Below, in pieces: positions 5,275-61,730 of a stretch of 64,000 nt of DNA. A model generated the notes under the pieces. That model was not told where the DNA came from, made no database searches, and saw only the letters and a program-made list of their open reading frames with translations. Numbering within the stretch: position 1 is the stretch's first letter; each line of letters starts with the position of its first letter. Position numbers and translations under genes: made by a program. The stretch comes from a virus (lineage: Duplodnaviria; Heunggongvirae; Uroviricota; Caudoviricetes): positions 12,652 to 76,651 of the IMG/VR virus record IMGVR_UViG_2609459822_000013; one strand, 5' to 3'.

Positions 5275-5453
5275 AAAACGAAGTTAAAGATCTGCAAATA
5301 GATATTCAGCGCGACGAGCGTGATTTAGAGACGGTCCGACAAATCCAAGCTTTCCACATGCGCGAATTACTTGCGCTGAAAGAGTTCGAAAGAAAGCTGG
5401 TGCAATCCATTTCTGATCGTAAACGGCTGGCGGCACGTTATGAGGGCAAATAA
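5271..5453 (+). CDS. Hypothetical small coiled-coil protein
   Basis: 60-aa ORF overlapping rusA stop (ATGA). Confidence 0.3.
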   Translation: MKNEVKDLQIDIQRDERDLETVRQIQAFHMRELLALKEFERKLVQSISDRKRLAARYEGK

Positions 5454-6181
5454 TGAATTTAGAATCCATTCTAAAATTCCACTTTCCTAAATCACCGCGA
5501 TTATCTGACGAAAGCCGGGGCACGTCCCCGGACGCTCTTAATACGACGGATGCGCTAACCGCTGCGGGTATGGCGCAATCGCGCGTAGAGCTTGGATATA
5601 GCGCTTTTTTAGGGAAGATGGAACTATCACAAGCCGAAAAACACAGGGCCGTAGTTTTGCTTACAGAGCGTTTAAGGGCTATGGCGAAAGATTACGAATA
5701 CGTGATGGAGTTAAACGAGGATCAGCGCAATGAACTTATTATTCTTGTTGCCGTTTTCGCGTTTCGGGATTATTGCCAGAGTGCGGCGACCGAAAAAGTT
5801 TGCCCTAAGTGCGGCGGCCACGGGCATTTACCAAATCCATATTGCAAATACACATCGACAATTTGTTCGCGGTGCAACGGCAAAGGCTACGTTAAAAACC
5901 ATTGCCAACGTTGCAAGGGGCGCGGAGAAGTACCGGATAAAGCAGCCAGTGAAGCGGCGGAAATGCCAGTATTCAAAACGTGCCAGCATTGCGGCGGGCG
6001 CGGGTACTCGCGTTTCCCGGTAGATCTCGTCCGGCAGGCCGTTAACCAGCTTGTTTTCCCGGTAAGCAGATCAACATGGTGGAAGAAATACCGGGTTTTC
6101 TATGAAGACGCCATAGCGGAGCTATTCAAAGAAGAGGCCCGCGCGGAAAGCGAAATTAAACGAGTGACACGGGGTGAATAA
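5453..6181 (+). CDS. DnaJ-type zinc-finger protein (four CxxCxGxG repeats); possible late-gene regulator
   Basis: 242 aa; CPKCGGHG, CSRCNGKG, CQRCKGRG, CQHCGGRG repeats; sits where Q is found in lambdoid phages but lacks the WGxW motif. Confidence 0.4.
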   Translation: MNLESILKFHFPKSPRLSDESRGTSPDALNTTDALTAAGMAQSRVELGYSAFLGKMELSQAEKHRAVVLLTERLRAMAKDYEYVMELNEDQRNELIILVAVFAFRDYCQSAATEKVCPKCGGHGHLPNPYCKYTSTICSRCNGKGYVKNHCQRCKGRGEVPDKAASEAAEMPVFKTCQHCGGRGYSRFPVDLVRQAVNQLVFPVSRSTWWKKYRVFYEDAIAELFKEEARAESEIKRVTRGE

Positions 6182-6384
6182 TGGACAAGTTAGAAATAAA
6201 CGATCAGTTTGCCGTTATCTTGTTCGAAGATAAAACGGGCGGCGCGTGGTGTAAGAAAGTAACTGGTGCAGAAGCGCGATTGATATTGGGTATGGCAAGC
6301 GCATTAAACGAAGGCGAATTGCCAGCCGTACCTATTGAGCCTGTTCACATTTACGGGAGGAATAGAGAAGATGAAAATAATTAA
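6181..6384 (+). CDS. Hypothetical small phage protein
   Basis: 67-aa ORF in track. Confidence 0.25.
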   Translation: MDKLEINDQFAVILFEDKTGGAWCKKVTGAEARLILGMASALNEGELPAVPIEPVHIYGRNREDENN

Positions 6385-6718
6385 TATCGGGTGGTTATAT
6401 TGCGAAAACTGCGACGACGACGGCATGGTTGTTAAGACTGAAAAAGGTTGCGGCTTCTTTTTGTATCAAGGCGATAAGTTTGTTTGTCCGCGATGCGGTG
6501 GTCATGGTGAGATAGAAATTATTGAAGATAGTGCTACAGCACCAGAGCCGGAGCGCATTGTTCTTGACGAAAAAATAAAAATTCATCCTGATTTATTGCA
6601 GCAAATTATCGATCACATATCGGCAGCAGCAATCTATGCAGATAATAATTATCATCGTGAAATGAACGTAAAACGTGTTCTTGAGCAGTATTTCGAGGGT
6701 GGTGATAATGAAGCCTAA
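6371..6718 (+). CDS. Zinc-ribbon protein (CxxC...CxxC)
   Basis: Internal ATG (MKIINIG) with GGGAGG upstream; CENC and CPRC pairs. Confidence 0.35.
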   Translation: MKIINIGWLYCENCDDDGMVVKTEKGCGFFLYQGDKFVCPRCGGHGEIEIIEDSATAPEPERIVLDEKIKIHPDLLQQIIDHISAAAIYADNNYHREMNVKRVLEQYFEGGDNEA

Positions 6719-6977
6719 ATTAAAAGAACATGAATTCAGGGATCTTGTAAACGGAATAACTGATAAGTCCAGGACTTATTCAAATACACAACAATTAAGG
6801 GCTGTGATAGTTACTGAATTAAGGAAATATATAGACCTAAGAGATCCGGTCGATGTTATGACGATGGACGAGGCCATCAAGCGCCGTTCGGCTGAATGGT
6901 CAGTGAGTAATACCGGATTAACCGGATATATTGAAGGCTATAACGACTGTTTACAGGATCATAGCGATGGCAAGTAA
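6708..6977 (+). CDS. Hypothetical phage protein
   Basis: Internal ATG (MKPKLKEH) preceded by GAGGGTGG. Confidence 0.3.
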   Translation: MKPKLKEHEFRDLVNGITDKSRTYSNTQQLRAVIVTELRKYIDLRDPVDVMTMDEAIKRRSAEWSVSNTGLTGYIEGYNDCLQDHSDGK

Positions 6978-7275
6978 AGACCTGCATTTGAATCTGAAAG
7001 GGGAATACTTCCACGCCATCCGGGCGGGAAAGAAGGTGGAAGAATACAGGCTTTACAATGACTATTGGCGTAAACGCCTGGAGGGGCGGGAATATGAACG
7101 CCTGATCATTAAGCTGGGGTATCCAGCCAGCCACGAAGCGCACCGGATCATAAACCTGCCTTATTTCGGGTACGAAGTAAAAACTATCACGCATCCATTA
7201 TTCGGCCCTGATCCTGTTAAGGTATTCGCAATTAAATGTGATGTGAATTGGATGTTAAGGTGGGGTGAGCAATGA
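6967..7275 (+). CDS. ASCH-domain (PUA-like) protein
   Basis: About 100 aa with AIRAGKKVEEYR, matching the ASCH N-terminal GxKxxExR signature. Confidence 0.45.
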   Translation: MASKDLHLNLKGEYFHAIRAGKKVEEYRLYNDYWRKRLEGREYERLIIKLGYPASHEAHRIINLPYFGYEVKTITHPLFGPDPVKVFAIKCDVNWMLRWGEQ

Positions 7276-7487
7276 AAAAAGCTGGCCTGTCAATCAGTCG
7301 TGTGTTGTGCGGCGACGAAAGCGAGATCCGCATAGAAATTAAATTTAGCACGGGTAAAGAGATAATTCTCTATACGACACCTGAAAACCTGACGCTGGCG
7401 CTTACTGGTAAATCTGAAACGCCGTGCGACGTCCGGTTGCGCAATATTGAGATTAAGGAAATAGGAAGGGTGAGAAATGAAAAGTAA
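7272..7487 (+). CDS. Hypothetical small phage protein
   Basis: 71-aa ORF, ATGA-coupled to upstream gene. Confidence 0.3.
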   Translation: MKKAGLSISRVLCGDESEIRIEIKFSTGKEIILYTTPENLTLALTGKSETPCDVRLRNIEIKEIGRVRNEK

Positions 7488-7689
7488 CCGTAAACGCCTG
7501 GTAAGGTCATATGACAAAGCGTTAAAGGTTTTTGATGATCTGCGACACAATAAACGCCAGCGCCGCAAATGGGCGCGAATGCTTGTTGGTGAATGGCATA
7601 ACGAAGATTTCTTTCTGGAAGCGCGGCACATGACGCAAGAAGACGCGGACCAATTAGCTTACGATAACGTTTATTATATGATGTGGTGA
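7477..7689 (+). CDS. Hypothetical small basic phage protein
   Basis: 70-aa ORF in track. Confidence 0.3.
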   Translation: MKSNRKRLVRSYDKALKVFDDLRHNKRQRRKWARMLVGEWHNEDFFLEARHMTQEDADQLAYDNVYYMMW

Positions 7690-7693
7690 CAAT

Positions 7694-8059
7694 ATGCAAA
7701 TAATCCTTGATTACCTTTGCCACGCTGCAAATACAATTTTTGGCATGTATCAGCAACAATTCCTCAAAGAATGGGACGACATGCTGAATGATATCCTCGA
7801 TAAAGGATTAATAATGGAGGTTGACGAGCTTACAATCAAATTTAATTATGAGGGTGAAATTTATCTAATTTGGGTCGGGAATAGATGGTATTCATACGGT
7901 CATATTTATTCAATTGGCGATAAATACATTAAACGAAGCCAGGAATTCAGACCGCGCTTCCGAACAATGCGCCGCCTGCATGATCTGCATATGAAGTTAT
8001 TCGAAGATCAGGAAGCACGGGAATTATTCAAAATTTACGGGGATAAATCATGGAGCTAA
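7694..8059 (+). CDS. Hypothetical phage protein
   Basis: 121-aa ORF in track. Confidence 0.3.
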   Translation: MQIILDYLCHAANTIFGMYQQQFLKEWDDMLNDILDKGLIMEVDELTIKFNYEGEIYLIWVGNRWYSYGHIYSIGDKYIKRSQEFRPRFRTMRRLHDLHMKLFEDQEARELFKIYGDKSWS

Positions 8060-8280
8060 AAATCTGGCAGGCTATCGACGTGGTTGATAACGAATTATCT
8101 ATGTTTGCCACTGACGGAAAGCGCGTGGTGATCGCCACATGGACGCGCAACCATGATGATATTACTTTTCGTCGCAAGGCTGCGGAGTGGCTTTTCTCTG
8201 ATAAAGGCTACACGATGAATATCTCCCAGCTTGCCAGAATGAAGGATGAAAAGCTGGTAGATAGTTACACGACTGCATAG
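8050..8280 (+). CDS. Hypothetical phage protein
   Basis: 76-aa ORF in track. Confidence 0.3.
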   Translation: MELKIWQAIDVVDNELSMFATDGKRVVIATWTRNHDDITFRRKAAEWLFSDKGYTMNISQLARMKDEKLVDSYTTA

Positions 8281-8290
8281 TGGGGCAAAT

Positions 8291-8524
8291 ATGTGTATCT
8301 ATGAACACAAGCGGGATAAAACCCGCTTTTTTGTTCGTGCTGGCGTTGCATACCAGTATCACGAATGCGGATACATTGAGGCGCTTGCTTACGATCTGGA
8401 TTTCGAGCAGGAAAAAGAATGGTTCGATTTCAAAATATACCGCAAGCGTAAACCAACGCGCTACGAGCGCCACGCTATCCGGGACTTTTTAATCAGCATT
8501 GAGCGCTGGAGGACAGAAGAATGA
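8291..8524 (+). CDS. Hypothetical phage protein
   Basis: 77-aa ORF in track. Confidence 0.3.
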   Translation: MCIYEHKRDKTRFFVRAGVAYQYHECGYIEALAYDLDFEQEKEWFDFKIYRKRKPTRYERHAIRDFLISIERWRTEE

Positions 8525-8799
8525 GAACAAAGAAAACAGCAGATCAGAAAGCGTTAGTTATCGCTACAACGGACGTATCGTTATTCACGAAGGGTGAAGA
8601 GATAGATCTTAAATTGCTTTTTGGAATGTTTGAGCCACACGAAAAGCCGTGGTTCGTACATGAAGATAAACAAGGCAATATGCGCGTAGTAGTGCCTGAC
8701 AGTAAAAGCGATATATTTTTTGGTATTCCAGATCCGTTACATGACGGTGAGATGTTGGCGGTGTTGTTGATCTCTGATGCTGTTACTTATAAGGGGTAA
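8521..8799 (+). CDS. Hypothetical phage protein
   Basis: 92-aa ORF, ATGA-coupled. Confidence 0.3.
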   Translation: MRTKKTADQKALVIATTDVSLFTKGEEIDLKLLFGMFEPHEKPWFVHEDKQGNMRVVVPDSKSDIFFGIPDPLHDGEMLAVLLISDAVTYKG

Positions 8800-8801
8800 A
8801 G

Positions 8802-9029
8802 ATGAAAGTCAAATTCTTGCACGATCACGGTTATCCGTCATTGAAACAGGTTGTTGGTAAGGTCGTTAATGTCGTTCATAGCGATGATGTCACTTGCATG
8901 ATTAACGGTGCTGATTTAATCGCCGCTGGCGCTGATGATCATTACATCAATCCGGCGTGGTCGTATACGTTCAGCCTGGGTGACTTCGTTGGCGACAAGG
9001 GGCGCGGGCTGCAAGTGGTCGAGGGTTAA
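8802..9029 (+). CDS. Hypothetical phage protein
   Basis: 75-aa ORF in track. Confidence 0.3.
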   Translation: MKVKFLHDHGYPSLKQVVGKVVNVVHSDDVTCMINGADLIAAGADDHYINPAWSYTFSLGDFVGDKGRGLQVVEG

Positions 9030-9033
9030 TATC

Positions 9034-9282
9034 ATGGACGTTTACGAAGATCTATACCTTCAGACGAATACCCACACTTTTTATTTTTTGAAAAACGGCG
9101 TTGTATATCGCAGCGACGACGGGATGGTAATGAAGGAGTGGTTATTTAAGCGTAAAGACCTACTCGACGATCTGGTTTTTGCCGGGATATTTCGTAAACG
9201 TCCGGCTAACCTGGAAGAAGAAATGTTGATTGAGGTAATTAAAAATGAAAATCAGGGTAAGTTATTTCCGGGCGAAAGATAA
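9034..9282 (+). CDS. Hypothetical phage protein
   Basis: Internal ATG (MDVYEDLY) with GAGGG upstream, directly after the upstream stop. Confidence 0.3.
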   Translation: MDVYEDLYLQTNTHTFYFLKNGVVYRSDDGMVMKEWLFKRKDLLDDLVFAGIFRKRPANLEEEMLIEVIKNENQGKLFPGER

Positions 9283-9496
9283 GGCAACAGGAAAGCAGAT
9301 GGCGATCCTGGTTAACGAGGCCAATTATATGTTTGTACTTCAGCCGTGGTGCATAGCTGACTATAACGATGATTATCGTCGTCACGGTGCGCGGAGTGCG
9401 GTAGGCATGAAAGGCTGGCAACCGCGCGACATGGAAAACTATTGTGAATGGAAATTAGTAGCAAAATACACTGTCGATTATAAAGGTGTTTTCTGA
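9245..9496 (+). CDS. Hypothetical phage protein
   Basis: 83-aa ORF in track. Confidence 0.3.
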   Translation: MKIRVSYFRAKDKATGKQMAILVNEANYMFVLQPWCIADYNDDYRRHGARSAVGMKGWQPRDMENYCEWKLVAKYTVDYKGVF

Positions 9497-9568
9497 TTAA
9501 TGTTACTTTCACGGAAGATATGCGAACCAGTGGGGCAAATGACCCCATCAAGCCAGAAGGGTTTAATC

Positions 9569-9868
9569 ATGAAAAGCGATAAATTCATTGCGTGCTGTTT
9601 TGTTGAAGTGCCTAAAGGTGATGCCTTCTGCGATTATGAATTTAAAGACAGTTGGGGAAAATCTCATGTTGTAGTTGGGAAGCGCGGAGACTGGTTATAC
9701 ATAACAGACGACGACATGATTTTTACTGCAAACCAGTTATTCAAAATTAAGTCAGAAAATAGTGAAACGCCACTTTGCAGCATGTTTAACATGCATTATC
9801 ACTCACTATTATTGTTAAAACAAGATGTTATAAATAAAGCGCGTAGCTTACCTGGTGCTGAATTTTAA
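9569..9868 (+). CDS. Hypothetical phage protein
   Basis: Internal ATG (MKSDKFIAC) with GAAGGG upstream. Confidence 0.3.
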   Translation: MKSDKFIACCFVEVPKGDAFCDYEFKDSWGKSHVVVGKRGDWLYITDDDMIFTANQLFKIKSENSETPLCSMFNMHYHSLLLLKQDVINKARSLPGAEF

Positions 9869-9891
9869 TTTATTACTAAGGAGAATAAGCA

Positions 9892-10215
9892 ATGTACAAA
9901 TTTATCAGCGTTAAAGTTTTTCGTGGCACTTTACCGAGCAAGGAAACATTAGGGCAATTCGCCGGACAACCTGGCGCATGTTTCCGTGTAGCCACTGAAG
10001 ACGACGCGCACGTTAAATGCTTCCATGTAACTGAACCGCCTTTTAATGCAGACCATCTTGAAGACCTGAATAGAATTAAAAGCCTTATTTTTGCTTATCT
10101 GGCGTTCCCTGGAATGGGTGATACTGATGTTGAATTGCTTGGTGCTGAACTGTTTGCGGAATACAAAATGACTGAAGGTGTAACAGGGGGAATTGACATT
10201 GAGCGCATTAAGTAA
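9892..10215 (+). CDS. Hypothetical phage protein
   Basis: 107-aa ORF with AGGAG upstream. Confidence 0.3.
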   Translation: MYKFISVKVFRGTLPSKETLGQFAGQPGACFRVATEDDAHVKCFHVTEPPFNADHLEDLNRIKSLIFAYLAFPGMGDTDVELLGAELFAEYKMTEGVTGGIDIERIK

Positions 10216-10453
10216 GCTATACAAGATCAGGTGTAAAGGCGAATACCCTGGCTTTACTACTGGATGCGAATACCTGGGCCATATTGGGTATGGATCTTTC
10301 GGTGAATTAGGGATGAATACGCTTGACGACGACGGCGACAGCAGGACGCTTGATCTTGATTCTGATGATTTCGAATACATCCCGCCAGTGACTTCCCGCG
10401 TAGTTGATGAGTTCCTGGCTGAACATGAAGATGATGAGGATGATTATGATTGA
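10193..10453 (+). CDS. Small protein with strongly acidic C-terminal tail
   Basis: 86 aa; C-terminal third dominated by D/E (DDDGDSRTLDLDSDDFEY...HEDDEDDYD). Confidence 0.3.
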   Translation: MTLSALSKLYKIRCKGEYPGFTTGCEYLGHIGYGSFGELGMNTLDDDGDSRTLDLDSDDFEYIPPVTSRVVDEFLAEHEDDEDDYD

Positions 10454-10636
10454 ATGCCTTATTGCTGTGATTGTTTTGCTTTATATCGCTGGCGCGATCC
10501 TGATGTCATGTTTTATTAAGTATAGCGGCGCTGAACCTGGTGGCCTTGAGATTCCTTTATGGCCTGTAGTGATGTTTCTCGCTTTCTTTGATGCTACGGT
10601 AGTGCAGATCAAGCGAGCTATTAAGGAGCGCAAGAA

Positions 10637-10819
10637 ATGATTGAAGACGGTATCTATGGTGTAAACCTGATGGAGAACGTTTTTTACATGGTGGACGGCG
10701 ATACTGTAACAATCAGCTTCGATGGTGGGGAATATGCAGAGCCATTCTTCAAAACAACAAGGGAAGACATTAAGCACGGCGTTGATAACGGCGTACTGTT
10801 TAAGGTTGGCGAGTTATGA
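10637..10819 (+). CDS. Hypothetical small phage protein
   Basis: 60-aa ORF; shares xEDGIY N-terminus with the next small ORF (paralog-like). Confidence 0.3.
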   Translation: MIEDGIYGVNLMENVFYMVDGDTVTISFDGGEYAEPFFKTTREDIKHGVDNGVLFKVGEL

Positions 10820-10989
10820 ACGAGATCGAAGACGGTATCTATTTGCACATGTTATTTAATATCGCCTATTTGGTTAAAGGTGATAAGGTGATGACACAAA
10901 GCGCTGGCAATAAATATTGGGAATCAAGCGGAATGGATCGGTGGCATATGCAGATGTTGCTTGATAATGGCCTGATATACAGGAAGCAG

Positions 10990-11257
10990 TAAAGCCGTAT
11001 TTGTGGGGGGCAGTATGGAAGAAATGATTTTGCTGTCATTAATATGGCATCGGTTCGGGAGTGAAAAAGGTTACTCGCCTGCTTGCTGGCTGGATAGTAA
11101 AAGTGGGAAGGGGGATCAAAACGAATGCGAATTTAGAAGGGAGTGGCGAGGCGGTAAGGAAGTGCAAGGATATTTTGCACCGAAACACGTCGCCGCCAAA
11201 TACAAAGAATGGCTTGTTCGTTTGCTTGGCCCTTATCGTTAAAGCCGTATTTGTGGG
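10990..11257 (+). repeat. 18-bp direct repeat (taaagccgtatttgtggg) at 10990-11007 and 11240-11257
   Basis: Both copies begin with the stop codon of the preceding ORF and read identically in the sequence. Confidence 0.6.
11003..11242 (+). CDS. Hypothetical small protein flanked by an 18-bp direct repeat
   Basis: 79-aa ORF lying between two copies of taaagccgtatttgtggg. Confidence 0.3.
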   Translation: MGGSMEEMILLSLIWHRFGSEKGYSPACWLDSKSGKGDQNECEFRREWRGGKEVQGYFAPKHVAAKYKEWLVRLLGPYR

Positions 11258-11279
11258 TCGAAAACAAACAGATTAAAAT
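11251..11279 (+). promoter_or_regulatory. Candidate sigma70 promoter upstream of the lysis cassette (possible late promoter)
   Basis: TTGTGG, 17-nt spacer, TAAAAT; followed within ~30 nt by an intrinsic terminator, a lambda pR'/tR'-like arrangement. Confidence 0.3.
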
Positions 11280-11307
11280 ATTACCTAACAATGCGAAACT
11301 GTAACTA

Positions 11308-11329
11308 CCCGGCCCCGTGCCGGGTTTTT
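11308..11329 (+). terminator. Rho-independent terminator just upstream of the holin gene (tR'-like)
   Basis: GC hairpin cccggc-cccgt-gccggg followed by T5. Confidence 0.5.
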
Positions 11330-11349
11330 GCTTTGTTGGAGGTAAATCT

Positions 11350-11550
11350 ATGTTCGACAGAATACGGGAGGCATGTGCGTATGTGACTGGGGCCGTAACT
11401 GCTTTTTTCGGCGCGATAACCATCAATGATATTGCCGTCTTTGTGGGTATCTTATCAACCGTAGGCACATTTGCCGTTAATTATTACTTCAAATCGCAGG
11501 AGAACAAGCGAGCGCAAGAGGAACACGACGCGCGAATGGGGAATAAGTAA
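11350..11550 (+). CDS. Holin (small two-segment membrane protein)
   Basis: ATG with GGAGGT 7 nt upstream; 66 aa, two hydrophobic segments, charged C-terminus; directly precedes the endolysin. Confidence 0.6.
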
Positions 11551-11551
11551 C

Positions 11552-12043
11552 ATGATTAGCCAATCGCTGAAAAATAAGATTATTGCGGCGGCGGCTGGTG
11601 GGGCGATCGCTATTGCGGGGATGATGATAAAAGATCTTGAAGGCGTTGAGTATAAGCCGTACAGAGATGTCATCGGTGTTTACACGATATGTTATGGACA
11701 CGTCGGAAAAGACATCATGCTTGGGAAGACTTACACGCAATCAGAATGCGATGCTTTGTTAAATAAAGATCTACACAAGACCGCAAAAGCGATTGACCCA
11801 TATATCAAAGTCGAAATATCAGATTTTACCCGCGCTGCACTTTATTCCTTCGCCTATAACGTAGGCGCAACCAACTTCAAAACATCAACCTTATTAAAAC
11901 TACTCAATGACGGCAAGAAATCAGAAGCGTGCGCACAGCTTAAGCGCTGGGTATACGCTGGCGGTAAGAAGTGGCAAGGCCTGGTAAACCGCCGCGAGGT
12001 TGAATATGCCGTTTGCGAATGGGGGGAAACGTGGACAAGGTGA
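11552..12043 (+). CDS. SAR endolysin (phage lysozyme)
   Basis: N-terminal Gly/Ala-rich signal-anchor ([14 protein letters not shown]) and lysozyme E...D...T catalytic triad; resembles P21 R / RrrD. Confidence 0.85.
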
Positions 12044-12501
12044 AGGCGTTAATTATCGCCGCTGTTGTTTGCATTATTGCCGGACTGACCGCCGTAACAT
12101 GTTATTACCAGGGTGAGGCGGCAAGGTTACAGGAAGAAGTCACGGTAACGAAAGGCGCACTGAAAACGGCAAGTAACACTATTCAGCAGATGAAGGAGCG
12201 AAACGCCGAACTGTCAAAACTTGATAAGAGGTATCACGATGAGATTAAAGCTATCAGATCTGACATTGCCGATCTGCGCACTGGCATTGATAACGGTACT
12301 ATCCGGTTGCGCGTCAACGCAATACCCGTGCGAGTGTCCGACCCCGCCGCGACCGCCAGCCGCATTGATGGAGCCACCTGCGAGCTTGATGCCACTGCTA
12401 GACAATCTTATCTATCCCTCAGAGAACAACTAAAAGAGAAAGACGCACAGATCACTGGCCTACAGGACTACATCAAAACTCAGTGTTTACGCAAAGAATA
12501 G
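12019..12501 (+). CDS. Rz-like i-spanin
   Basis: N-terminal transmembrane segment plus coiled-coil periplasmic domain; Rz1 embedded in +1 frame; exact start uncertain (ATG 12019 or GTG 12031). Confidence 0.6.
12239..12433 (+). CDS. Rz1-like o-spanin lipoprotein
   Basis: Embedded within Rz; lipobox LSGC followed by a proline-rich segment. Confidence 0.7.
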   Translation: MRLKLSDLTLPICALALITVLSGCASTQYPCECPTPPRPPAALMEPPASLMPLLDNLIYPSENN

Positions 12502-12780
12502 CAGCGCGTTGACGTGTCGCCGTTTCTGTCAGCCAGCCATAACCGGGCCAATCCTTCCCGCGAGCGACGGCGGAATAGTCAAAAACACGTAATACCGGAT
12601 CAACAGTCCCATTAACAGGTCAGGCGCTACCTGGGTAGAAGAAAGCGCCATTCACCAATTTTATAAAATTCTGGAAACGGTACTGATGAAGCGCCGTTTT
12701 CAGTGTTTTATAACTGTTTTCACTCCCTGCGGTGTCGAGTTTTGCGGGGGTTATATTTTTCAGAATAGGAGATTATTCTG

Positions 12781-13323
12781 ATGGCTAAGGCTAAAGGCAT
12801 TAAATTGCCTCAATTTAAGATCCCACTCTTTGAGCATACAACCGTTTTTTTTTGCCCGACCCGCGAGATGTTCTATGAATTTTGCGAAAAGGCAGGAATT
12901 CCGATTGAACCTGATTTCGAGTTGGCTGGAGGATTAACGCTTACTTGCACTGGCGAGAATGGTGGTAACTTCTACGTGATCGCAGTATTCAACAATGAGT
13001 TGGGAACGCTGGTCCATGAATGCGCCCACACTACATTCCACGTTTTAAGTGATGTAGGCGTCGTGGCTACCACGGATCCTACCCATCCGGCGAATGAGAC
13101 TTACGCTTACATGGTAGGCCGTATCTTCGATGCGTTTTTCCCTATCCTAGCAGAATCAAACGAAGCACAGGTTGCAGCAATGCAGGCGGCAGAAGTCGTC
13201 GATCAGGCGCTGGAACAGGCAGAACAGCCGAAGGAAGAAGAAAAGCCAGCGAAGAAAGGTAAACGTAAGCCTAAGCAAAAAGATGCGTTAGTCCAGCGTG
13301 TAATGAGCTTTAAACGAGGCTGA
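12781..13323 (+). CDS. HExxH-motif protein (putative zinc metallopeptidase-like) with lysine-rich C-terminal tail
   Basis: 180 aa; LVHECAHTTFH motif; C-terminal KEEEKPAKKGKRKPKQK tail. Confidence 0.4.
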   Translation: MAKAKGIKLPQFKIPLFEHTTVFFCPTREMFYEFCEKAGIPIEPDFELAGGLTLTCTGENGGNFYVIAVFNNELGTLVHECAHTTFHVLSDVGVVATTDPTHPANETYAYMVGRIFDAFFPILAESNEAQVAAMQAAEVVDQALEQAEQPKEEEKPAKKGKRKPKQKDALVQRVMSFKRG

Positions 13324-13325
13324 TT

Positions 13326-13415
13326 ATGATTGCATCAATATTAACGTTTATAGGCGGTATGGCGGCTGGATTCATTCTTTGCATGTTTCTGGTGGTTATG
13401 TCTAAGCAGGATTGA
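13326..13415 (+). CDS. Mini-ORF 1 of 9: 29-aa single-helix hydrophobic peptide
   Basis: MIASILTFIGGMAAGFILCMFLVVMSKQD; ATG 3 nt after the upstream stop. Confidence 0.4.
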   Translation: MIASILTFIGGMAAGFILCMFLVVMSKQD

Positions 13416-13417
13416 TT

Positions 13418-13525
13418 ATGGATGATTACATTATCGCCGGATTAATCGGTATCTCTGTGTTTCTGGTGGGTTCTATTATAGTTGCGCTGATAAACGTATA
13501 TATCAAGTATTTGGTGGAGGGGTAA
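13418..13525 (+). CDS. Mini-ORF 2 of 9: 35-aa hydrophobic peptide
   Basis: MDDYIIAGLIGISVFLVGSIIVALINVYIKYLVEG; AGGA upstream. Confidence 0.4.
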   Translation: MDDYIIAGLIGISVFLVGSIIVALINVYIKYLVEG

Positions 13526-13526
13526 G

Positions 13527-13601
13527 ATGATTGACCCGCTCATTATCCTTTCTGCCTGCGTCGCTGTATGGCTGGCGATCATGATATTCATTGAAAGCTG
13601 A
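13527..13601 (+). CDS. Mini-ORF 3 of 9: 24-aa hydrophobic peptide
   Basis: MIDPLIILSACVAVWLAIMIFIES; GGAGG upstream. Confidence 0.4.
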   Translation: MIDPLIILSACVAVWLAIMIFIES

Positions 13602-13612
13602 AGGCATCCACA

Positions 13613-13693
13613 ATGAACGCATACGAAATGCTATTGCTGGTGGCTGTAGTTGTAGTCATTGCCGTAGATGTTTATCGGGAGTTTAAAAAATGA
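13613..13693 (+). CDS. Mini-ORF 4 of 9: 26-aa hydrophobic peptide
   Basis: MNAYEMLLLVAVVVVIAVDVYREFKK; AAGG upstream. Confidence 0.4.
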   Translation: MNAYEMLLLVAVVVVIAVDVYREFKK

Positions 13694-13758
13694 AATGGCT
13701 TGATTTCTTTTTCCTGATTGTTGCAATTGTTCTCACTATGATCGCACTGACTCAATAG
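13690..13758 (+). CDS. Mini-ORF 5 of 9: 22-aa hydrophobic peptide
   Basis: MKWLDFFFLIVAIVLTMIALTQ; ATGA overlap with ORF 4. Confidence 0.35.
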   Translation: MKWLDFFFLIVAIVLTMIALTQ

Positions 13759-13766
13759 GTGAGCTA

Positions 13767-13841
13767 ATGAACGCTATTGATATTATGTTGATCGTGTGTA
13801 CAGTTGCGTTATTTATTATCTTGGTAATTATCAATGTCTGA
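13767..13841 (+). CDS. Mini-ORF 6 of 9: 24-aa hydrophobic peptide
   Basis: MNAIDIMLIVCTVALFIILVIINV; GGTGAG upstream. Confidence 0.4.
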   Translation: MNAIDIMLIVCTVALFIILVIINV

Positions 13842-13899
13842 CAGTGATTTCTTAATTATAGCTATAAGCGCGTTATTAGTTGTCGTTTTCTTCGCGTAA
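13834..13899 (+). CDS. Mini-ORF 7 of 9: 21-aa hydrophobic peptide
   Basis: MSDSDFLIIAISALLVVVFFA; overlaps ORF 6, no clear SD (coupled). Confidence 0.3.
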   Translation: MSDSDFLIIAISALLVVVFFA

Positions 13900-13913
13900 G
13901 CAGGATGGAAAAC

Positions 13914-13985
13914 ATGAAAGACTCAGATTTCTTCTATATGGTTTTCACTATCGTCATTATTACTTGGGTGCTTTCTGTTATGTGA
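13914..13985 (+). CDS. Mini-ORF 8 of 9: 23-aa hydrophobic peptide
   Basis: MKDSDFFYMVFTIVIITWVLSVM; AGGA upstream; N-terminus paralogous to ORF 7. Confidence 0.4.
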   Translation: MKDSDFFYMVFTIVIITWVLSVM

Positions 13986-13996
13986 AGGGTGAAAAG

Positions 13997-14080
13997 ATGA
14001 AAGAATTATTCTACTGGTTGGAAGTATTAACGTACTGCGCAAGTATTGTGATTTGCGTATATATCATCATTAATTTTTGA
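13997..14080 (+). CDS. Mini-ORF 9 of 9: 27-aa hydrophobic peptide
   Basis: MKELFYWLEVLTYCASIVICVYIIINF; GGGTGA upstream; track ORF 13880-14080 is a run-on of this frame. Confidence 0.4.
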   Translation: MKELFYWLEVLTYCASIVICVYIIINF

Positions 14081-14090
14081 GAGGTGAATT

Positions 14091-14576
14091 ATGGCCCGCA
14101 CGAAAAAGGCAAATGCTGACGATAAAAAGCCAGCAGCCAAAAAGACGGGCCGTCCGCATGGCTATACCGAAGAAAAGGCATTAGAGATCTGTGAACTAGT
14201 GGCGGACGGTCATAGCGTTAATAAAATTTCGAAGATGCCAGGTATGCCAACGCGTTCGACGATCCTTAAATGGTTCAGAGATGTGCCGGAGTTTTCGGAC
14301 ATGTATGTACGCGCGAAGGAGATCGGTTTTGAGGTTTTAGCCGATGAGATCATAGATATAGCAGATGCAGCAGAGAACACTGATAAAGATCAATTGCGCC
14401 GCCATCAACTGATGATTGAAACGCGTAAATGGTTACTGGCAAAACTGCAACCGCGTAAATACGGTGAACGCGTCACACAGGAGATTGTCGGCAATAGGGA
14501 GGAGGCGCCAGTACAGGTGGAAGTAACGAAAGAAGAGATCGCCCGCATCGTCCAGGAAGTAGAAGATGAGGTGTGA
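14091..14576 (+). CDS. Terminase small subunit
   Basis: 161 aa; basic N-terminus, HTH-like segment; directly upstream of and overlapping the large terminase. Confidence 0.55.
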   Translation: MARTKKANADDKKPAAKKTGRPHGYTEEKALEICELVADGHSVNKISKMPGMPTRSTILKWFRDVPEFSDMYVRAKEIGFEVLADEIIDIADAAENTDKDQLRRHQLMIETRKWLLAKLQPRKYGERVTQEIVGNREEAPVQVEVTKEEIARIVQEVEDEV

Positions 14577-52952: not shown

Positions 52953-53810
52953 ATGCTGTTTGTGCTTATTCTAAGCCACCGGGCAGCATCATACGGGGCA
53001 ATTATGGCCGCATTACCATACATGCAACTGTACATAGCTGATTACCTGGCTGACACCATGCATTTGTCAGCAGAGGAGCATGGTGCGTATTTGTTGCTGA
53101 TGTTCAATTACTGGCAAACAGGAAAGCCAATACCTAAAAACAGGCTGGCAAAAATTGCCCGTCTGACTAACGAGCGATGGGCTGATGTTGAACCATCCTT
53201 GCAGGAGTTTTTTTGCGATAACGGCGAGGAATGGGTGCATCTTCGGATTGCGGAAGATCTGGCATCAGTCAGGGAAAAATTAACCAAAAAATCAGCCGCA
53301 GGAAAAGCATCTGTTCAGGCCAGAAGAAGCAGAAAGGAAGCAGATGTTCAAACAAAACAAGAGAGAAATTTAACAGGTGTTCAAACAGATGTTGAAGTGG
53401 TGTTTGAACATGATGTCAACACAAAGGCAACTAATAAAGATACAGATAAAGATCTAAAAACAGATCCCCCCCTAAATCCCCCCCGGGGGAATCGAGGTGT
53501 CAAAAAGTTTGACCCTCTGGATATTGCTTTGCCGAACTGGATTTCTGTCTCGCTTTGGCGTGAGTGGGTTGAATTTCGCCAGGCATTGCGAAAACCGATT
53601 CGAACGGAGCAGGGCGCTAACGGGGCGATACGGGAGCTGGAAAAATTCCGCCAGCAGGGTTTTTCACCTGAGCAGGTGATTAGACACAGCATCGCCAATG
53701 AATACCAGGGCTTGTTCGCGCCGAAAGGTGTTCGACCTGAGACGTTACTCCGACAGGTTAACACCGTCTCGTTACCGGATAGTGCGATCCCGCCAGGCTT
53801 CAGGGGGTAA
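52953..53810 (+). CDS. ydaU: Replication initiation protein (O-like) YdaU
   Basis: 285 aa; position upstream of the DnaC-like loader. Confidence 0.6.
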   Translation: MLFVLILSHRAASYGAIMAALPYMQLYIADYLADTMHLSAEEHGAYLLLMFNYWQTGKPIPKNRLAKIARLTNERWADVEPSLQEFFCDNGEEWVHLRIAEDLASVREKLTKKSAAGKASVQARRSRKEADVQTKQERNLTGVQTDVEVVFEHDVNTKATNKDTDKDLKTDPPLNPPRGNRGVKKFDPLDIALPNWISVSLWREWVEFRQALRKPIRTEQGANGAIRELEKFRQQGFSPEQVIRHSIANEYQGLFAPKGVRPETLLRQVNTVSLPDSAIPPGFRG

Positions 53811-55347: not shown

Positions 55348-55362
55348 TTGCCGGAGGCGCTT

Positions 55363-55794
55363 ATGGCAAAAGTATTTACACAAGAAGAGCGGGAAAAAAT
55401 TAAAGGGCAGGTTGTTGAGCTAGTACGCCGGAGTGGACGCGAGACGTTACGACAACTGGAGGCCAAGACAGGTGCGACAAGATATCTGATGAGCGTTCTC
55501 GCCAGAGAGCTGGTTGCCAGTGGCGATGTATACAACTCTGGTTACGGGTTATTCCCGTCTGAACAGGCTCGTAAGGACTGGCAAAATGCCCGCAAAAAAC
55601 TATCCAGGGCAAAGGTGAAGAAACCATCTGTGGTTGATCCGGACCTTATCTGGTCATTACCAGACGGAGAAATACGCCGCTACGACAGGCGTCTGAACAT
55701 AATCTGTCGCGAGTGCCGGAAGAGTGAAGTTATGCAGCGTGTGCTGGCGTTTTATCAGAATGGTTTTCGAGAGAGGCTTGGAGATCAGGGATGA
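55363..55794 (+). CDS. Winged-helix protein with C-terminal CxxC
   Basis: Internal ATG (MAKVFTQEE); wHTH-like N-terminus, CRECRK motif. Confidence 0.35.
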   Translation: MAKVFTQEEREKIKGQVVELVRRSGRETLRQLEAKTGATRYLMSVLARELVASGDVYNSGYGLFPSEQARKDWQNARKKLSRAKVKKPSVVDPDLIWSLPDGEIRRYDRRLNIICRECRKSEVMQRVLAFYQNGFRERLGDQG

Positions 55795-55987
55795 ATAGAA
55801 CGATGAAGGATGGAAGCTACATATTCTCGGTACTAAGATTTATTTTTCTGACACAAAATGACCATTTGGCGTTACATAATCCCAAAAAAACGTATCAAAA
55901 ATCTCAAAATGCGTTACGATTAGAGAGTATTTTGATTCTGCGTGCTCATTTTTTGATTGCTGTGGCTTTTTGTTGTGGGAGTGTTGA

Positions 55988-57142
55988 ATGGATTATTTAT
56001 CAGAAGTGTTAAAAATCATTGAAGGTGCAACAAAGGCAAATGCTTCGATGGCTAGTAATTATGCTGGGTTGCTGGCAGATAAGCTCGAACAAAAAGGGGA
56101 GGTCAAGCAAGCCAGAATGATAAGAGAAAGGTTGCTTAGAGCTCCCCAGGCGTTGGCAGGAGCTCAAAGGGCTGGAGGTGGGATATCTCTGGGCTCATTA
56201 CCGGTAGATATTGATAGTCGACTCAACACTGTTGATGTCAGTTATCCTAAATTAGACAGTTCAGAGATTTTTCTGCCTGCAGCAATCAGTACCCGTGTTG
56301 AAGAGTTTATCACTAATGTTCAACGTTATGATGAGTTTGTTAAAGCTGATGCAGCATTGCCGAGTCGTATGCTCGTGTATGGAAAGCCAGGAACAGGTAA
56401 GACTATGTTATCTAAGTACATCGCTACCCGCTTAGATTTTCCACTTCTTACAGTGCGTTGCGATACTTTGATTAGTAGTTTATTGGGACAAACCAGCAAA
56501 AATCTTAGACAGGTTTTCGATTATGTAATGCAGAGGCCATCAGTGCTTTTTTTAGACGAATTTGATGCTTTAGCTGGAGCAAGAGGTAATGAGAGAGATA
56601 TAGGTGAGCTTCAGCGAGTTGTCATTTCACTATTGCAGAATATGGATGCGGCATCAGAGGATACGGTAATTATTGCCTCAACTAACCATGAGCAACTTCT
56701 GGATCCTGCAATCTGGAGGCGATTTAGCTTCAGAATTCCAATGCCTCTGCCTGACATACATCAGAGAGAGTTAATTTGGAAAAATCGTTTAAAGAATATG
56801 ATATGTAGCGATCTAGATTTAAGTGATTTATCAAGAAAATCGGAAGGATTATCCGGAGCAATAATTGAACAGGTGAGCTTGGATGCACGTAGGGATGCAG
56901 TTATTGAAGGTGCAAGTGTGATAAATCACCATAAATTGTATAGGCGTTTGTATCTTGCTCAATCGCTTATGGAAGGGGTAAATTTAAGCACTTACGAAGA
57001 TGAAATTCGTTGGTTACGTTCTAAAGATAAAAAATTATTTTCTATCAGAGTTCTTGCTAATTTGTACAAACTTACATCAAGAGTAATTTCAAACATTCTG
57101 AAGGAGTCAGGAGCATATGAGCAGAAGGGGTACACAGTTTAG
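55988..57142 (+). CDS. AAA+ ATPase (IetA-like candidate defense ATPase)
   Basis: 384 aa; Walker A GKPGTGKT, Walker B VLFLDEFDAL, sensor/Arg region ASTNHEQLLDPAIWRRF; AT-rich gene, 26-nt overlap with the protease gene. Confidence 0.75.
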   Translation: MDYLSEVLKIIEGATKANASMASNYAGLLADKLEQKGEVKQARMIRERLLRAPQALAGAQRAGGGISLGSLPVDIDSRLNTVDVSYPKLDSSEIFLPAAISTRVEEFITNVQRYDEFVKADAALPSRMLVYGKPGTGKTMLSKYIATRLDFPLLTVRCDTLISSLLGQTSKNLRQVFDYVMQRPSVLFLDEFDALAGARGNERDIGELQRVVISLLQNMDAASEDTVIIASTNHEQLLDPAIWRRFSFRIPMPLPDIHQRELIWKNRLKNMICSDLDLSDLSRKSEGLSGAIIEQVSLDARRDAVIEGASVINHHKLYRRLYLAQSLMEGVNLSTYEDEIRWLRSKDKKLFSIRVLANLYKLTSRVISNILKESGAYEQKGYTV

Positions 57143-59381
57143 TAACGCAAAAGTTACAAACCCAATGTTAAGAATCCCTTTTTCCAGTAGTGACTTGGGT
57201 GCAATAGTAAACGCTGGCGGTGGGGCAAAGGTATTGGTTGATGTAACAGCCGAATATAGACAAGGGCTAGTAAGAAATTTAACAACCAGTAAACATTATT
57301 TAGAATCCAAACTTTCAGAGTACCCTGGAAGCTTGGGTACTTTGGTTTTCAAATTAAGAGACCAGGGAATAGCCAAAACGCATAGGCCGAACAAAATTGC
57401 TCAAGAGGCTGGATTGCAAAATGCCGGTCATGCCAAAATAGATGAAATGTTGGTTGCTGCTCATGCCGGCTGTTTTGACGTATTAGAGTCAGTCATTTTA
57501 CATCGGAATATTAAAGCGATTTTGGCTAATCTAAGCGCGATTGAGCGCATTGAACCTTGGGATGAGAATAGGAAGGTTCCAGGAGGCACTGATGGTTTGT
57601 TTGAATCATCAAACATCCTTGTACGACTATTTGAGTACACAGGTGAAGATGCAACTTACAACAACTATGAAAACGTTATTTCTATATTAGAACAACACGG
57701 AGTTAAATATGATGAGATTAGACAAAAATGTGGTCTTCCCTTATTAAGGATAATGGATTTATCCCCAAATGATAGATATATATTAGACATTCTCATTGAT
57801 TACCCGGGTATAAGAACGTTAATTCCTGAACCAAAATATTCAGCATTCCCGGTTAGTGTAAGTGATTCTGTTGGCATTGAAACAAATAGCTTTCCCGTAC
57901 CATCAGAAGAATTACCCATTGTTGCTGTATTTGACACTGGGGTAAGCCCCATCGCGGCAACAATTACTCCTTGGGTAGTGAGTAGGGAAACATACGTAAT
58001 TCCTCCTGATACGAGTTATGAACATGGGACTATGGTGTCTTCATTGATATCAGGCGCTCATTTTTTAAATGACAATCATCCATGGATTCCTGATACAAAA
58101 TCTAAAATCCATGATGTTTGTGCCTTAGATGAAAATGGATCTTATATATCAGATTTAATTCTGAGGCTAGCAGATGCTGTAAATAAAAGACCAGATATAA
58201 AAGTCTGGAATTTGTCTTTGGGAGGCGGACCATGTAATGAGCAGACGTTTAGTGATTTTGCGATGGAGTTAGATCGGCTCAGCGATAAATTTGGTATTTT
58301 GTTTGTAGTTGCTGCAGGTAATTATGTAGATGAACCTATACGTACATGGCCAAATCCTGATCCGCTTGGAGGTGCTGATTTAATTTCCTCTCCTGGAGAG
58401 TCAGTCCGAGCACTAACAGTTGGTTCAGTTTCTCATATGGAAGCTAATGATGCTTTAAGTGAAATTGGAACACCGACACCATATACTCGTCGTGGCCCTG
58501 GGCCTGTATTTACTCCAAAGCCAGATATAATCCATGCTGGCGGTGGGGTTCATAGACCTTGGAATGTAGGAGCAAGCAGTTTAAAGGTCGTAGGGCCAGA
58601 TAATAGGCTTTGCTCTAATTTTGGTACTAGTTTTGCTGCTCCAATTGTGGCAAGTTTAGCTGCGCATACATGGCAGAGAATAGCCACTAATACAGACTTT
58701 AATGTTTCACCATCATTGATTAAAGCATTATTAATTCATTCCGCTCAATTATCTTCTCCTGATTACTCGCCAAGTGAAAGACGCTATTTGGGAGCGGGAA
58801 TTCCTAATGAAGTTATTGAGACCTTATATGATAGTGATGATAGGTTTACTCTGATTTTCCAAACATTCTTGGTTCCTGGGGTGAGGTGGAGAAAGGATAA
58901 CTATCCCATACCATCGGCACTTATTCAAAATGGAAAATTTAAAGGTGAGATTGTAATTACTGCTGCATATGCACCACCACTGAACCCTAATGCCGGCAGT
59001 GAATATGTTCGCGCGAACGTAGAGCTAAGTTTTGGCTTAATTGAGAATAATACTATAAAAGGAAAAGTGCCTATGGAAGGAGAAAACGGTCAATCTGGAT
59101 ATGAGAGAGCTCAAATTGAGCATGGTGGAAAGTGGTCACCAGTAAAAATTCATCGCAAGGCATTTAATAAAGGAATTACTTCGGGTAACTGGGCTCTTCA
59201 GGCTAAAACAACGTTGAGAGCGAATGAACCGGCCTTAATGGAGCCTTTACCTGTAACTATTGTAGTAACTTTAAAATCATTAGATGGAAACACACAAGTT
59301 TATGCTGATGGCGTAAGAGCTTTAAATGCTAATAACTGGGCTCACTATCCATTGCCTGCTCGTGTGCCAGTTTCCGTATAA
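57117..59381 (+). CDS. Subtilisin-like serine protease, S8 family, cytoplasmic (IetS-like candidate defense protease)
   Basis: 754 aa; catalytic D (VFDTGVS), H (HGTMVSS), S (GTSFAAP) and oxyanion N (NLSLGG); no signal peptide; ~270-aa N-terminal extension. Confidence 0.75.
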   Translation: MSRRGTQFSNAKVTNPMLRIPFSSSDLGAIVNAGGGAKVLVDVTAEYRQGLVRNLTTSKHYLESKLSEYPGSLGTLVFKLRDQGIAKTHRPNKIAQEAGLQNAGHAKIDEMLVAAHAGCFDVLESVILHRNIKAILANLSAIERIEPWDENRKVPGGTDGLFESSNILVRLFEYTGEDATYNNYENVISILEQHGVKYDEIRQKCGLPLLRIMDLSPNDRYILDILIDYPGIRTLIPEPKYSAFPVSVSDSVGIETNSFPVPSEELPIVAVFDTGVSPIAATITPWVVSRETYVIPPDTSYEHGTMVSSLISGAHFLNDNHPWIPDTKSKIHDVCALDENGSYISDLILRLADAVNKRPDIKVWNLSLGGGPCNEQTFSDFAMELDRLSDKFGILFVVAAGNYVDEPIRTWPNPDPLGGADLISSPGESVRALTVGSVSHMEANDALSEIGTPTPYTRRGPGPVFTPKPDIIHAGGGVHRPWNVGASSLKVVGPDNRLCSNFGTSFAAPIVASLAAHTWQRIATNTDFNVSPSLIKALLIHSAQLSSPDYSPSERRYLGAGIPNEVIETLYDSDDRFTLIFQTFLVPGVRWRKDNYPIPSALIQNGKFKGEIVITAAYAPPLNPNAGSEYVRANVELSFGLIENNTIKGKVPMEGENGQSGYERAQIEHGGKWSPVKIHRKAFNKGITSGNWALQAKTTLRANEPALMEPLPVTIVVTLKSLDGNTQVYADGVRALNANNWAHYPLPARVPVSV

Positions 59382-59395
59382 CAACTATATAAATC

Positions 59396-59420
59396 AAACC
59401 CGCTGTAGCGGGTTTGATTT
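59396..59420 (+). terminator. Rho-independent terminator after the protease gene
   Basis: aaacccgc-tgta-gcgggttt hairpin followed by a T-rich run. Confidence 0.55.
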
Positions 59421-59794
59421 ATTTGTGGGTGTGTTTTATAAAAATACCGCCCATACACAACAAAATACAAAAAGTATTATAGATAAAAAAGGAACGTAAT
59501 GTGCAGATTTGTTGTTTTCCATATTTACTCACCTTAATATGATTAACCCTGATAGGGTTGTTATTTCAGCGGTTTTCAAATGAGATATTATGGTGATCTG
59601 GCAGATTTGCATAACATTAAAATTTAATTTGTTTAACCGCTTTTAATAATAAGCGTTGTTTGTATCCCAGCAATCTGTTTTTTGGTTTTTATTCCATTAA
59701 GGTGGGGCTTTACACTGGAGCCAGTTTATTTATACTTCATACGTCAGCCTGAACAACTGGCATCTGCTGCGCTGCGCCATCGAGAGATTAAGAA

Positions 59795-60394
59795 ATGGCG
59801 CATATACAACTGGTCAAACAAACCTCTTCCGGATTACTTCTCCCGGCGACGCCGGAGAGTTGTGATTTTCTGCATCAAATCAAAATAGGCGAGTGGATAC
59901 ACGCAGACTTTAAGCGTGTGCGTAACTACGCATTCCACAAGCGTTTTTTCAAACTCCTGCAACTGGGATTCGATTACTGGACTCCGGTCGGTGGGGCGAT
60001 CACGCCTCGCGAACGAGAACTGCTGTCTGGTTTCGTTGATTACCTGTGCGAATCAGTTGGTCGGGAACACACGCCAGCCCTGAGTGATGCCGCAGAGCAA
60101 TATCTGAATACAGTTGCGACACGCAGAACCCGGGATACGGCATTGCTAAAGTCGTTTGAGGCTTTTCGCGAGTGGGTAACCATTCAGGCTGGATTTTACA
60201 CCGAACATTTTTATCCGGACGGTAGCCGCGGGCGTCGGGCAAAATCTATCGCTTTTGCGAATATGGACGAAACCGAGTTTCAGCAGGTTTATAAATCTGT
60301 TCTGAATGTGCTGTGGAACTGGATTCTGTTCCGTAAATTTTCCTCTCCGGAACAAGTCGAAAATGTGGCCGCGCAGCTGCTGGAGTTTGCGTAA
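59795..60394 (+). CDS. Conserved lambdoid nin-region protein (DUF1367-like, putative)
   Basis: 199 aa; position immediately upstream of ybcO-like gene. Confidence 0.4.
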   Translation: MAHIQLVKQTSSGLLLPATPESCDFLHQIKIGEWIHADFKRVRNYAFHKRFFKLLQLGFDYWTPVGGAITPRERELLSGFVDYLCESVGREHTPALSDAAEQYLNTVATRRTRDTALLKSFEAFREWVTIQAGFYTEHFYPDGSRGRRAKSIAFANMDETEFQQVYKSVLNVLWNWILFRKFSSPEQVENVAAQLLEFA

Positions 60395-61576: not shown

Positions 61577-61652
<76 letters not shown>

Positions 61653-61655
61653 TAT

Positions 61656-61730
<75 letters not shown>

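Follow-up and report, generated by a model that had tools for sequence, protein, structure and literature searches.

The whole 64,000-nt stretch of DNA considered here (hereafter the window; positions 12,652 to 76,651 of IMG/VR record IMGVR_UViG_2609459822_000013) contains a genuine Rac-site prophage of Escherichia coli. Two genes of this prophage, ietA and ietS (iteA and iteS in RefSeq), almost certainly constitute an IetAS system, composed of an AAA+ ATPase and a subtilisin-like protease of the S8 family. This anti-phage system is said to have received its name from Gao et al. 2020 (Science 369:1077). Both proteins match the dedicated PADLOC profile hidden Markov models essentially end to end: residues 1-374 of the 384-residue IetA align with positions 1-371 of the 374-position IetA profile PDLC02196 (474 bits, E-value 8.9e-143), and residues 12-753 of IetS with positions 3-748 of the 749-position IetS profile PDLC02197 (998 bits, 8.3e-301). 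Likewise, they score above the cut-offs of the NCBIfam equivalogs NF042959, 'anti-phage ATPase IteA' (526.6 bits; cut-off 510), and NF042956, 'S8 family anti-phage peptidase IteS' (1043.4 bits; cut-off 900). Pfam matches cover only the generic cores, AAA in IetA (2.6e-30) and Peptidase_S8 in IetS (4.6e-26). A preliminary description of this DNA, made from its letters alone, had proposed an IetAS-like pair as a candidate defense system and had suggested a profile search; 'candidate' proved too cautious for a locus that RefSeq already lists as iteA/iteS and that has been cloned from ECOR52 and assayed.

The locus is not new. DNA identical to positions 55700-59800 is present in 78 of 5426 complete E. 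coli genomes, and on this identical DNA RefSeq names the products 'anti-phage ATPase IteA' (WP_000385105.1) and IteS (WP_001551050.1). Compared with the proteobacterial clade of IetAS, the pair has the same gene order, an overlapping gene junction and full-length profile matches, with no difference of substance. Moreover, the gene-specific parts of the primers FN0414 and FN0415, used by Wu et al. (bioRxiv 10.1101/2022.08.21.504612) to clone ietAS of strain ECOR52, each have a single, perfect match in the window, at 55795-55817 (+) and 59774-59794 (-), respectively, from which it follows that their amplicon corresponds to the ietAS island of the window. The pair is thus a member of the known IetAS system and no variant of it, and has already been annotated, cloned and assayed. 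As a discovery it matters little, since the system has a name and profiles in both PADLOC and NCBIfam, and the locus itself is annotated on identical RefSeq DNA and has been assayed experimentally; what remains of interest is the molecular mechanism of ietAS, still unsolved in the literature, and the slot of the Rac prophage in which the pair resides.

The two genes are adjacent and co-oriented, with the ATPase gene first and a single terminator after ietS. The overlap of 26 nt between them, already seen in the preliminary description, agrees with the coordinates of the open reading frames (ORFs). In addition, all 30 members of a family alignment (homologs 50-84% identical) keep the first methionine of IetS, which supports both the called start and the overlap. 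Shine-Dalgarno (SD) sequences precede both start codons, and the overlap implies that translation of the two genes would be coupled; a comparable gene overlap is found in an iteA/iteS pair of Acidovorax. The catalytic equipment is intact. The Walker A (GKPGTGKT, residues 132-139, including K138) and Walker B (VLFLDE, residues 186-191, including D190 and E191) motifs of IetA are invariant in the 30-sequence family alignment, and so are D273 (DTG), H303 (HGT), the oxyanion N402 (AAGN) and S505 (GTSFAAP) of IetS, so that the complete D/H/S triad and oxyanion asparagine had been read correctly. The earlier statement that IetS has no signal peptide also holds, as judged by hydropathy: in neither protein did Kyte-Doolittle analysis, used here without a dedicated signal-peptide predictor, detect a hydrophobic N-terminus or a transmembrane-like segment, the highest-scoring 19-mer (1.48) lying on the beta-strand that bears D273 of IetS.

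An annotated twin locus places the pair between the replication module and the nin/Q region of a Rac-type prophage, as had been proposed. Its gene order is ttcA, intR, xisR, ralR, recT, recE, kilR, racR, ydaS, ydaT, ydaU, ydaV, DUF1627, DUF977, iteA and iteS, followed by DUF1367, DUF1364 (YbcO), DUF1133 (Q-like), tRNA-Thr, tRNA-Gly, essD, rrrD and, further on, trkG, then terminase, head and tail genes. Judged by the intact ydaU-like ORF of the window and the likewise intact terminase, head and tail genes of the twin locus, this variant of Rac seems much more complete than its remnant in K-12. Of the 5426 complete E. coli genomes, 4652 possess the flanking genes but only 78 the ietAS island, a distribution contrary to that of a core lambdoid function. 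The pair is also visibly richer in A and T than its surroundings: in G+C (GC) content it stands out as a 39% segment of about 3.6 kb between 50% flanks (0.393 across 55795-59794 versus 0.499 in both flanks), in line with the preliminary description.

Comparison with sibling Rac prophages revealed that this segment of about 3.6 kb is one allele of an exchangeable defence-cargo slot between the DUF977 and DUF1367 genes. The siblings share a 100% identical right flank and carry other cargo in the slot: in strain FDAARGOS_1058, a type II cytosine (C5) methyltransferase, an ABC-ATPase nuclease (HEC-04/AriA/PtuA-like according to PADLOC) and Hok; in strain 135, a P2 Old-type nuclease (PADLOC Old, 245 bits; OLD-TOPRIM) and HokD. 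The slot occupies 55760-59400 of the window, 3313-6608 of the FDAARGOS_1058 locus (L002) and 3768-6600 of the strain 135 locus (L004). DUF977 directly adjacent to DUF1367, that is, an empty slot, was found in none of the 5426 E. coli genomes, and the borders of the cassette were therefore set against prophages with other cargo. Homology to the FDAARGOS_1058 prophage ends at about 55759-55768, within the last ten codons of DUF977, and picks up again at about 59397-59410, within the terminator hairpin that begins 8 nt past the ietS stop codon. Accordingly, the claim that the island has its own terminator stands as regards the hairpin 3' of ietS but not as regards its ownership: the hairpin is an element of the junction between cassette and backbone rather than purely a part of the island. 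A terminator hairpin common to the variants marks the right breakpoint of the slot. Rac, a textbook cryptic prophage, thus exists in fuller forms with exchangeable defence cargo at one fixed position, and the DUF977/DUF1367 setting of ietAS is described here in more detail than in the literature we consulted. The features of the locus are listed in the table.

Table. Features of the ietAS locus and its immediate surroundings in window coordinates (aa, amino acid residues; AF2, AlphaFold2 model).
Feature	Position	Strand	Description
Left backbone gene (DUF977 family)	55348-55794	+	Pfam DUF977 2e-28; last ~10 codons inside the replaced segment
Leader and left junction of the cassette	55760-55987	+	AT-rich; SD GGAG 5-6 nt 5' of the ietA ATG
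ietA (iteA)	55988-57142	+	384-aa classical-clade AAA+ ATPase; antitoxin/regulator partner according to the literature
IetA N-terminal three-helix bundle, aa 2-62	55991-56173	+	AF2 helices 2-17, 19-35 and 39-62; followed by a disordered linker, aa 63-97
IetA AAA core	56369-56746	+	Walker A 56381-56404, pore loop 1 SSLLG 56474-56488, Walker B 56543-56560
IetA sensor-1 and Arg region NHEQLLDPAIWRRF	56684-56725	+	Within the AAA core
IetA C-terminal small helical module, aa 336-371	56993-57100	+	AF2 helices 336-346, 353-359 and 364-371
ietA/ietS overlap	57117-57142	+	26 nt; SD AAGGAG/AGGAG just 5'
ietS (iteS)	57117-59381	+	754-aa cytoplasmic S8 subtilase; toxin/effector according to the literature
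IetS N-terminal domain 1, aa 45-147	57249-57557	+	AF2; family-invariant motifs
IetS propeptide-like module, aa 167-242	57615-57842	+	beta-alpha-beta-beta-alpha-beta
IetS linker, aa 245-267	57849-57917	+	Variable; low AF2 confidence
IetS S8 catalytic domain, aa 268-545	57918-58751	+	Codons of D273 57933-57935, H303 58023-58025, N402 58320-58322, S505 58629-58631
IetS C-terminal domain, aa 546-754	58752-59378	+	Beta-rich; most conserved part of IetS
Intrinsic-terminator hairpin	59389-59422	+	15-bp stem, 4-nt loop, T-rich tail; -26 kcal/mol, z = -5.9 versus shuffles
Right backbone gene (DUF1367 family)	59795-60394	+	Pfam DUF1367 1e-96; followed by YbcO-family (Pfam YbcO 1e-43) and Q-like genes

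IetA is a classical-clade AAA+ protein. In a sequence search of the PDB it matches p97/Cdc48, PAN and FtsH, and in its AF2 model (predicted template modelling score, pTM, 0.69) the AAA core is closest by Foldseek to the ATPase domain of PAN (TM-score 0.87), p97, FtsH, Rpt and Vps4 also being matched. IetA shares with PAN, p97/Cdc48, FtsH and Vps4 the core fold, the Walker motifs, the sensor and Arg region, and an N-terminal helical bundle with a flexible linker before a single AAA module. It differs from them in pore loop 1, which reads L165-L166-G167 instead of containing an aromatic residue, a feature kept in the 30 homologs and in a more distant Agrobacterium protein. Among AAA rings, an aliphatic pore loop 1 is typical of those that do not thread their substrates, such as p97 D1. 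The N-terminal region, previously delimited as a domain of about 130 residues, is better described as a three-helix bundle of about 62 residues and a disordered linker. The bundle, which may resemble the MIT domain of Vps4, gave no Pfam match, MIT included. It is the most conserved part of IetA, on a par with the ATPase core (78% versus 74% identity), and is also retained in the Agrobacterium plasmid homolog. Judging from the sequences, such conservation is easier to reconcile with a constant role in partner binding than with a sensor that diversifies. At the other end of the protein, the model has a lid between the AAA module and the small C-terminal helical module, which is a second feature peculiar to IetA in the comparison with the above ATPases. 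In 3 of 14 family members this module has weak matches to HTH_36, HTH_28, HTH_23 and HTH_11 (best E-value 3e-4), and it may possibly adopt a helix-turn-helix (HTH) fold. The inverted repeats in the leader 5' of ietA are short and AT-rich, and we do not take them as evidence of an operator.

For IetS, AF2 modelling with the 30-sequence alignment yielded a pTM of 0.84. The N-extension of the protease had been noted in the preliminary description, which missed the conserved C-terminal domain of about 210 residues (aa 546-754). Domain 1 of the N-extension has no Pfam or PDB sequence match and contains three sets of invariant positions, LR..(G)IAK.HRP (aa 80-91), GH...(D)EMLV (aa 104-113) and NLSA...I..W (aa 138-148). 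The first two, encoded at 57354-57389 and 57426-57455, match the catalytic residues in conservation; part of the first falls in a loop modelled with low confidence (predicted local distance difference test below 50 at aa 87-89). More broadly, the four terminal segments of IetA and IetS retrieved nothing from Pfam at E <= 10, profile searches of the PDB with the IetS N-extension and the IetA C-terminus returned only chance-level or uninformative matches (designed and mitoribosomal proteins), and a sequence search of the PDB revealed no solved structure for either protein. The module that precedes the linker and the catalytic domain appears structurally similar to the propeptides of pro-subtilisin-type structures, namely pro-subtilisin E (3WHI), ProN-Tk-SP (3AFG) and POIA1 (1V5I, an inhibitor), with sequence identity of only 17-25%. 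IetS has the S8 fold and D/H/S triad of such proteases, preceded by what may be a propeptide-type module; unlike them, it is cytoplasmic and possesses an additional conserved N-terminal domain, a C-terminal beta domain and an AAA+ partner. The modelled architecture suggests that IetS could be a zymogen with a tethered propeptide. The terminal extensions of both proteins had been regarded as possible sensor or regulatory domains, a suggestion that is borne out in part: for IetS, the propeptide-like module would favour a regulatory function in the form of auto-inhibition, while the conservation of the IetA bundle is unlike that of a fast-evolving sensor.

Taken together with published work on homologs, these features are consistent with the following outline. 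IetS would be a cytoplasmic subtilisin-family protease and the toxic effector, and IetA, made in a fixed ratio to it through translational coupling, would keep it harmless in uninfected cells. A trigger protein of an incoming phage would abolish the restraint exerted by IetA, and the freed IetS would then cleave cellular or phage proteins, causing the infected cell to stop growing (abortive infection) and thereby protecting the lysogen population and hence the prophage. In structural terms, IetS might resemble an unprocessed subtilisin zymogen, with the propeptide-like module (aa 167-242) placed on the catalytic domain and tethered to it through a linker that is flexible and evolves fast. To activate the protease, this module would have to be displaced or cut, a step that IetA may control through its conserved N-terminal three-helix bundle. 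We regard the outline itself, in which a latent protease is held by a co-translated restraint until a phage product releases it and proteolysis arrests the cell, as reasonably probable, and its details as less so. The present analysis establishes the identity of the genes, their intact catalytic residues, the structure of the operon and its nature as a cassette. The toxin and antitoxin roles, the protease requirement and abortive infection with a protein trigger are taken from papers on other homologs, and we infer that IetS is auto-inhibited like a zymogen and that IetA acts as a non-threading clamp.

The literature first presents IetAS as a toxin-antitoxin pair that stabilises plasmids, the protease being toxic and the ATPase its antitoxin (PMC13069673; PMC4010927). 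Protease activity is needed for defence by the ietHAS variant, for which ietA mutants were not obtainable (PMC13069673), and ietAS of Bacillus cereus acts by abortive infection triggered by the product of the SPbeta gene yosG (bioRxiv 10.1101/2022.08.27.505566). In E. coli, ietAS is present in 1979 of 26,362 genomes, as we read the published table, and is often located in prophages (bioRxiv 10.1101/2022.08.21.504612). The genomic company of the pair supports a role in defence: the same slot of the sibling prophages houses Old, the ABC-ATPase nuclease, the type II methyltransferase and Hok, and the Acidovorax plasmid homolog lies beside a Shedu nuclease and an integrase. Several observations weigh against the outline given above. 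When ECOR52 ietAS was cloned under pBAD, it alone conferred limited protection over 29 phages, and a benefit was seen only in combination with Zorya II, as better defence against T3 (bioRxiv 10.1101/2022.08.21.504612). Abortive infection and a phage trigger are shown solely for the distant Bacillus homolog. Finally, a search of the leader 5' of ietA for a consensus sigma-70 match with 16-18-nt spacing found none that would account for expression in the lysogen.

The limited protection by the ECOR52 allele alone could also mean that ietAS is mainly an addiction (post-segregational killing) module that stabilises Rac as IetAS does the Ti plasmid, with defence being weak or incidental for the allele in the window (bioRxiv 10.1101/2022.08.21.504612). 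Consistent with this possibility, IetAS was first described as a plasmid-stabilising toxin-antitoxin pair (PMC13069673; PMC4010927), homologs with the same two-gene layout are found on Agrobacterium Ri plasmids, and the other cargo of the slot includes Hok toxin genes. However, defence and addiction are compatible roles, close family members are curated as anti-phage equivalogs, and synergy with Zorya II against T3 has been measured (bioRxiv 10.1101/2022.08.21.504612). Moreover, the Old nuclease and the methyltransferase with the ABC-ATPase nuclease in the slot, as well as Shedu next to the Acidovorax pair, point to defence. A predominantly addictive function appears unlikely. A different concern is the direction in which IetA acts. 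It might be an activator which senses the phage and uses ATP hydrolysis to pull the propeptide-like module off IetS, in the way that PAN/Cdc48-clade unfoldases extract polypeptides. The core of IetA is indeed nearest to true unfoldases (PAN, with its TM-score of 0.87, p97, FtsH and Rpt), and the propeptide-like module with its flexible linker would offer something to grab. Yet the published genetics identify IetA as an antitoxin, ietA-mutant constructs having been unobtainable (PMC13069673), and the conserved pore loop 1 lacks an aromatic residue. We consider activation by IetA improbable.

We also considered the identity of IetS as a prohead or lysis-related protease, or as a secreted subtilase virulence factor, with IetA as its chaperone. 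The pair is located in the early-gene region and is missing from most Rac-type prophages that share its flanks and head genes; it also occurs on plasmids and non-phage islands. Hydropathy revealed no hydrophobic signal sequence, and the protease matches IetS profiles and no prohead protease family in Pfam or NCBIfam. Early-region position, patchy presence and the profile matches effectively refute this identity, which we rejected as highly improbable.

Returning to the latent protease restrained by IetA, its parts can be joined into a more specific scenario. IetS would be zymogen-like, with aa 167-267 as the switch, and IetA a non-threading clamp with an aliphatic pore that holds the switch closed via its N-terminal bundle and perhaps autoregulates the operon by its C-terminal HTH; the DUF977/DUF1367 junction would be a dedicated exchange site for defence cassettes, with a shared terminator as its right border. 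As a whole this combination is a tentative proposal, possible but doubtful. It is absent from the literature consulted, which calls the ietAS mechanism unknown. For mutants that probe this mechanism, the predicted architecture offers concrete targets: in IetS the propeptide-like module, and in IetA the aliphatic pore loop, the conserved bundle at the N-terminus and the putative HTH.

The Ti plasmid toxin-antitoxin pair IetAS was reportedly described by Yamamoto et al. 2009 (J Bacteriol 191:4656). As a comparator of the Ti/Ri type, for which the role described is plasmid stability, we used the pair of the Agrobacterium plasmid pRiO132, a presumed orthologue of the pTiC58 pair. It consists of a 374-aa ATPase followed by a 735-aa S8 peptidase. 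The ATPase is 39% identical to IetA over aa 4-307 (305 aa, E-value 7e-62), a stretch that takes in both the N-terminal bundle and the pore loop (ISSLLG), and the peptidase is 28% identical to IetS over 500 aa of the catalytic and C-terminal domains (E-value 6e-32). In contrast, the IetS N-extension of about 260 residues could not be aligned by BLASTP, and the genes of pRiO132 do not overlap but are separated by a 52-nt gap, in a plasmid setting. The closest plasmid homolog is the Acidovorax pair, annotated as iteA/iteS, with 52% identity. The ietHAS system (Liu-DS4) has IetA and IetS in common with the window; in that variant IetA acts like an antitoxin and defence depends on the protease activity (PMC13069673). 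It differs in having a gene for an SNF2 helicase; the window has no third gene, and the cassette (about 55760-59400) fits two genes only.

Several minor observations concern the cassette and its prophage. The AT-rich leader contains a 73-aa ORF (55791-56012), which overlaps the DUF977 stop and the ietA start and lies wholly within the cassette; it has no PGAP call, is labelled 'kinase (fragment)' in record ON470595, and is probably spurious. The ydaU-like gene (DUF1376; 52953-53810) is an intact 285-aa ORF, while RefSeq annotates it as frameshifted in the 99.9% identical strain 266917_2. Two tRNA genes, tRNA-Thr(TGT) and tRNA-Gly(TCC), lie 4 nt apart at 61577-61730, between the Q-like and lysis genes.

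An IetS identical at 100% is encoded in ON470595, deposited as phage vB_EcoS-683R6. We rejected this record as proof of an active phage, because the 'partial genome' includes host genes from abgT to ttcA: positions 1-14278 of ON470595.1, about 14 kb ahead of the Rac integrase, are host chromosome (abgT, abgB, abgA, abgR ... dbpA, ttcA). The record is an extraction of a prophage region and not a virion genome. In it, IetA is labelled 'cell division protein FtsH', and IetS is called from a later start codon.

The window also contains a second, unrelated prophage at 1-40035, with genes for a capsid, a tape measure, a 1656-aa tail tip fibre and a head-spike fibre. It ends about 50 bp inside the dgcM start, some 4 kb from the Rac integrase. 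The DNA of 20000-40035 is rare, with matches in 35 of the 5426 complete E. coli genomes, the best being 94% identical. Taken as a whole, the window is therefore not derived from any of the 78 complete genomes that share the ietAS island. The relative in strain FAH has a gene annotated as belonging to the anti-CBASS Acb1 family, and Rac is represented in that strain only by fragments.

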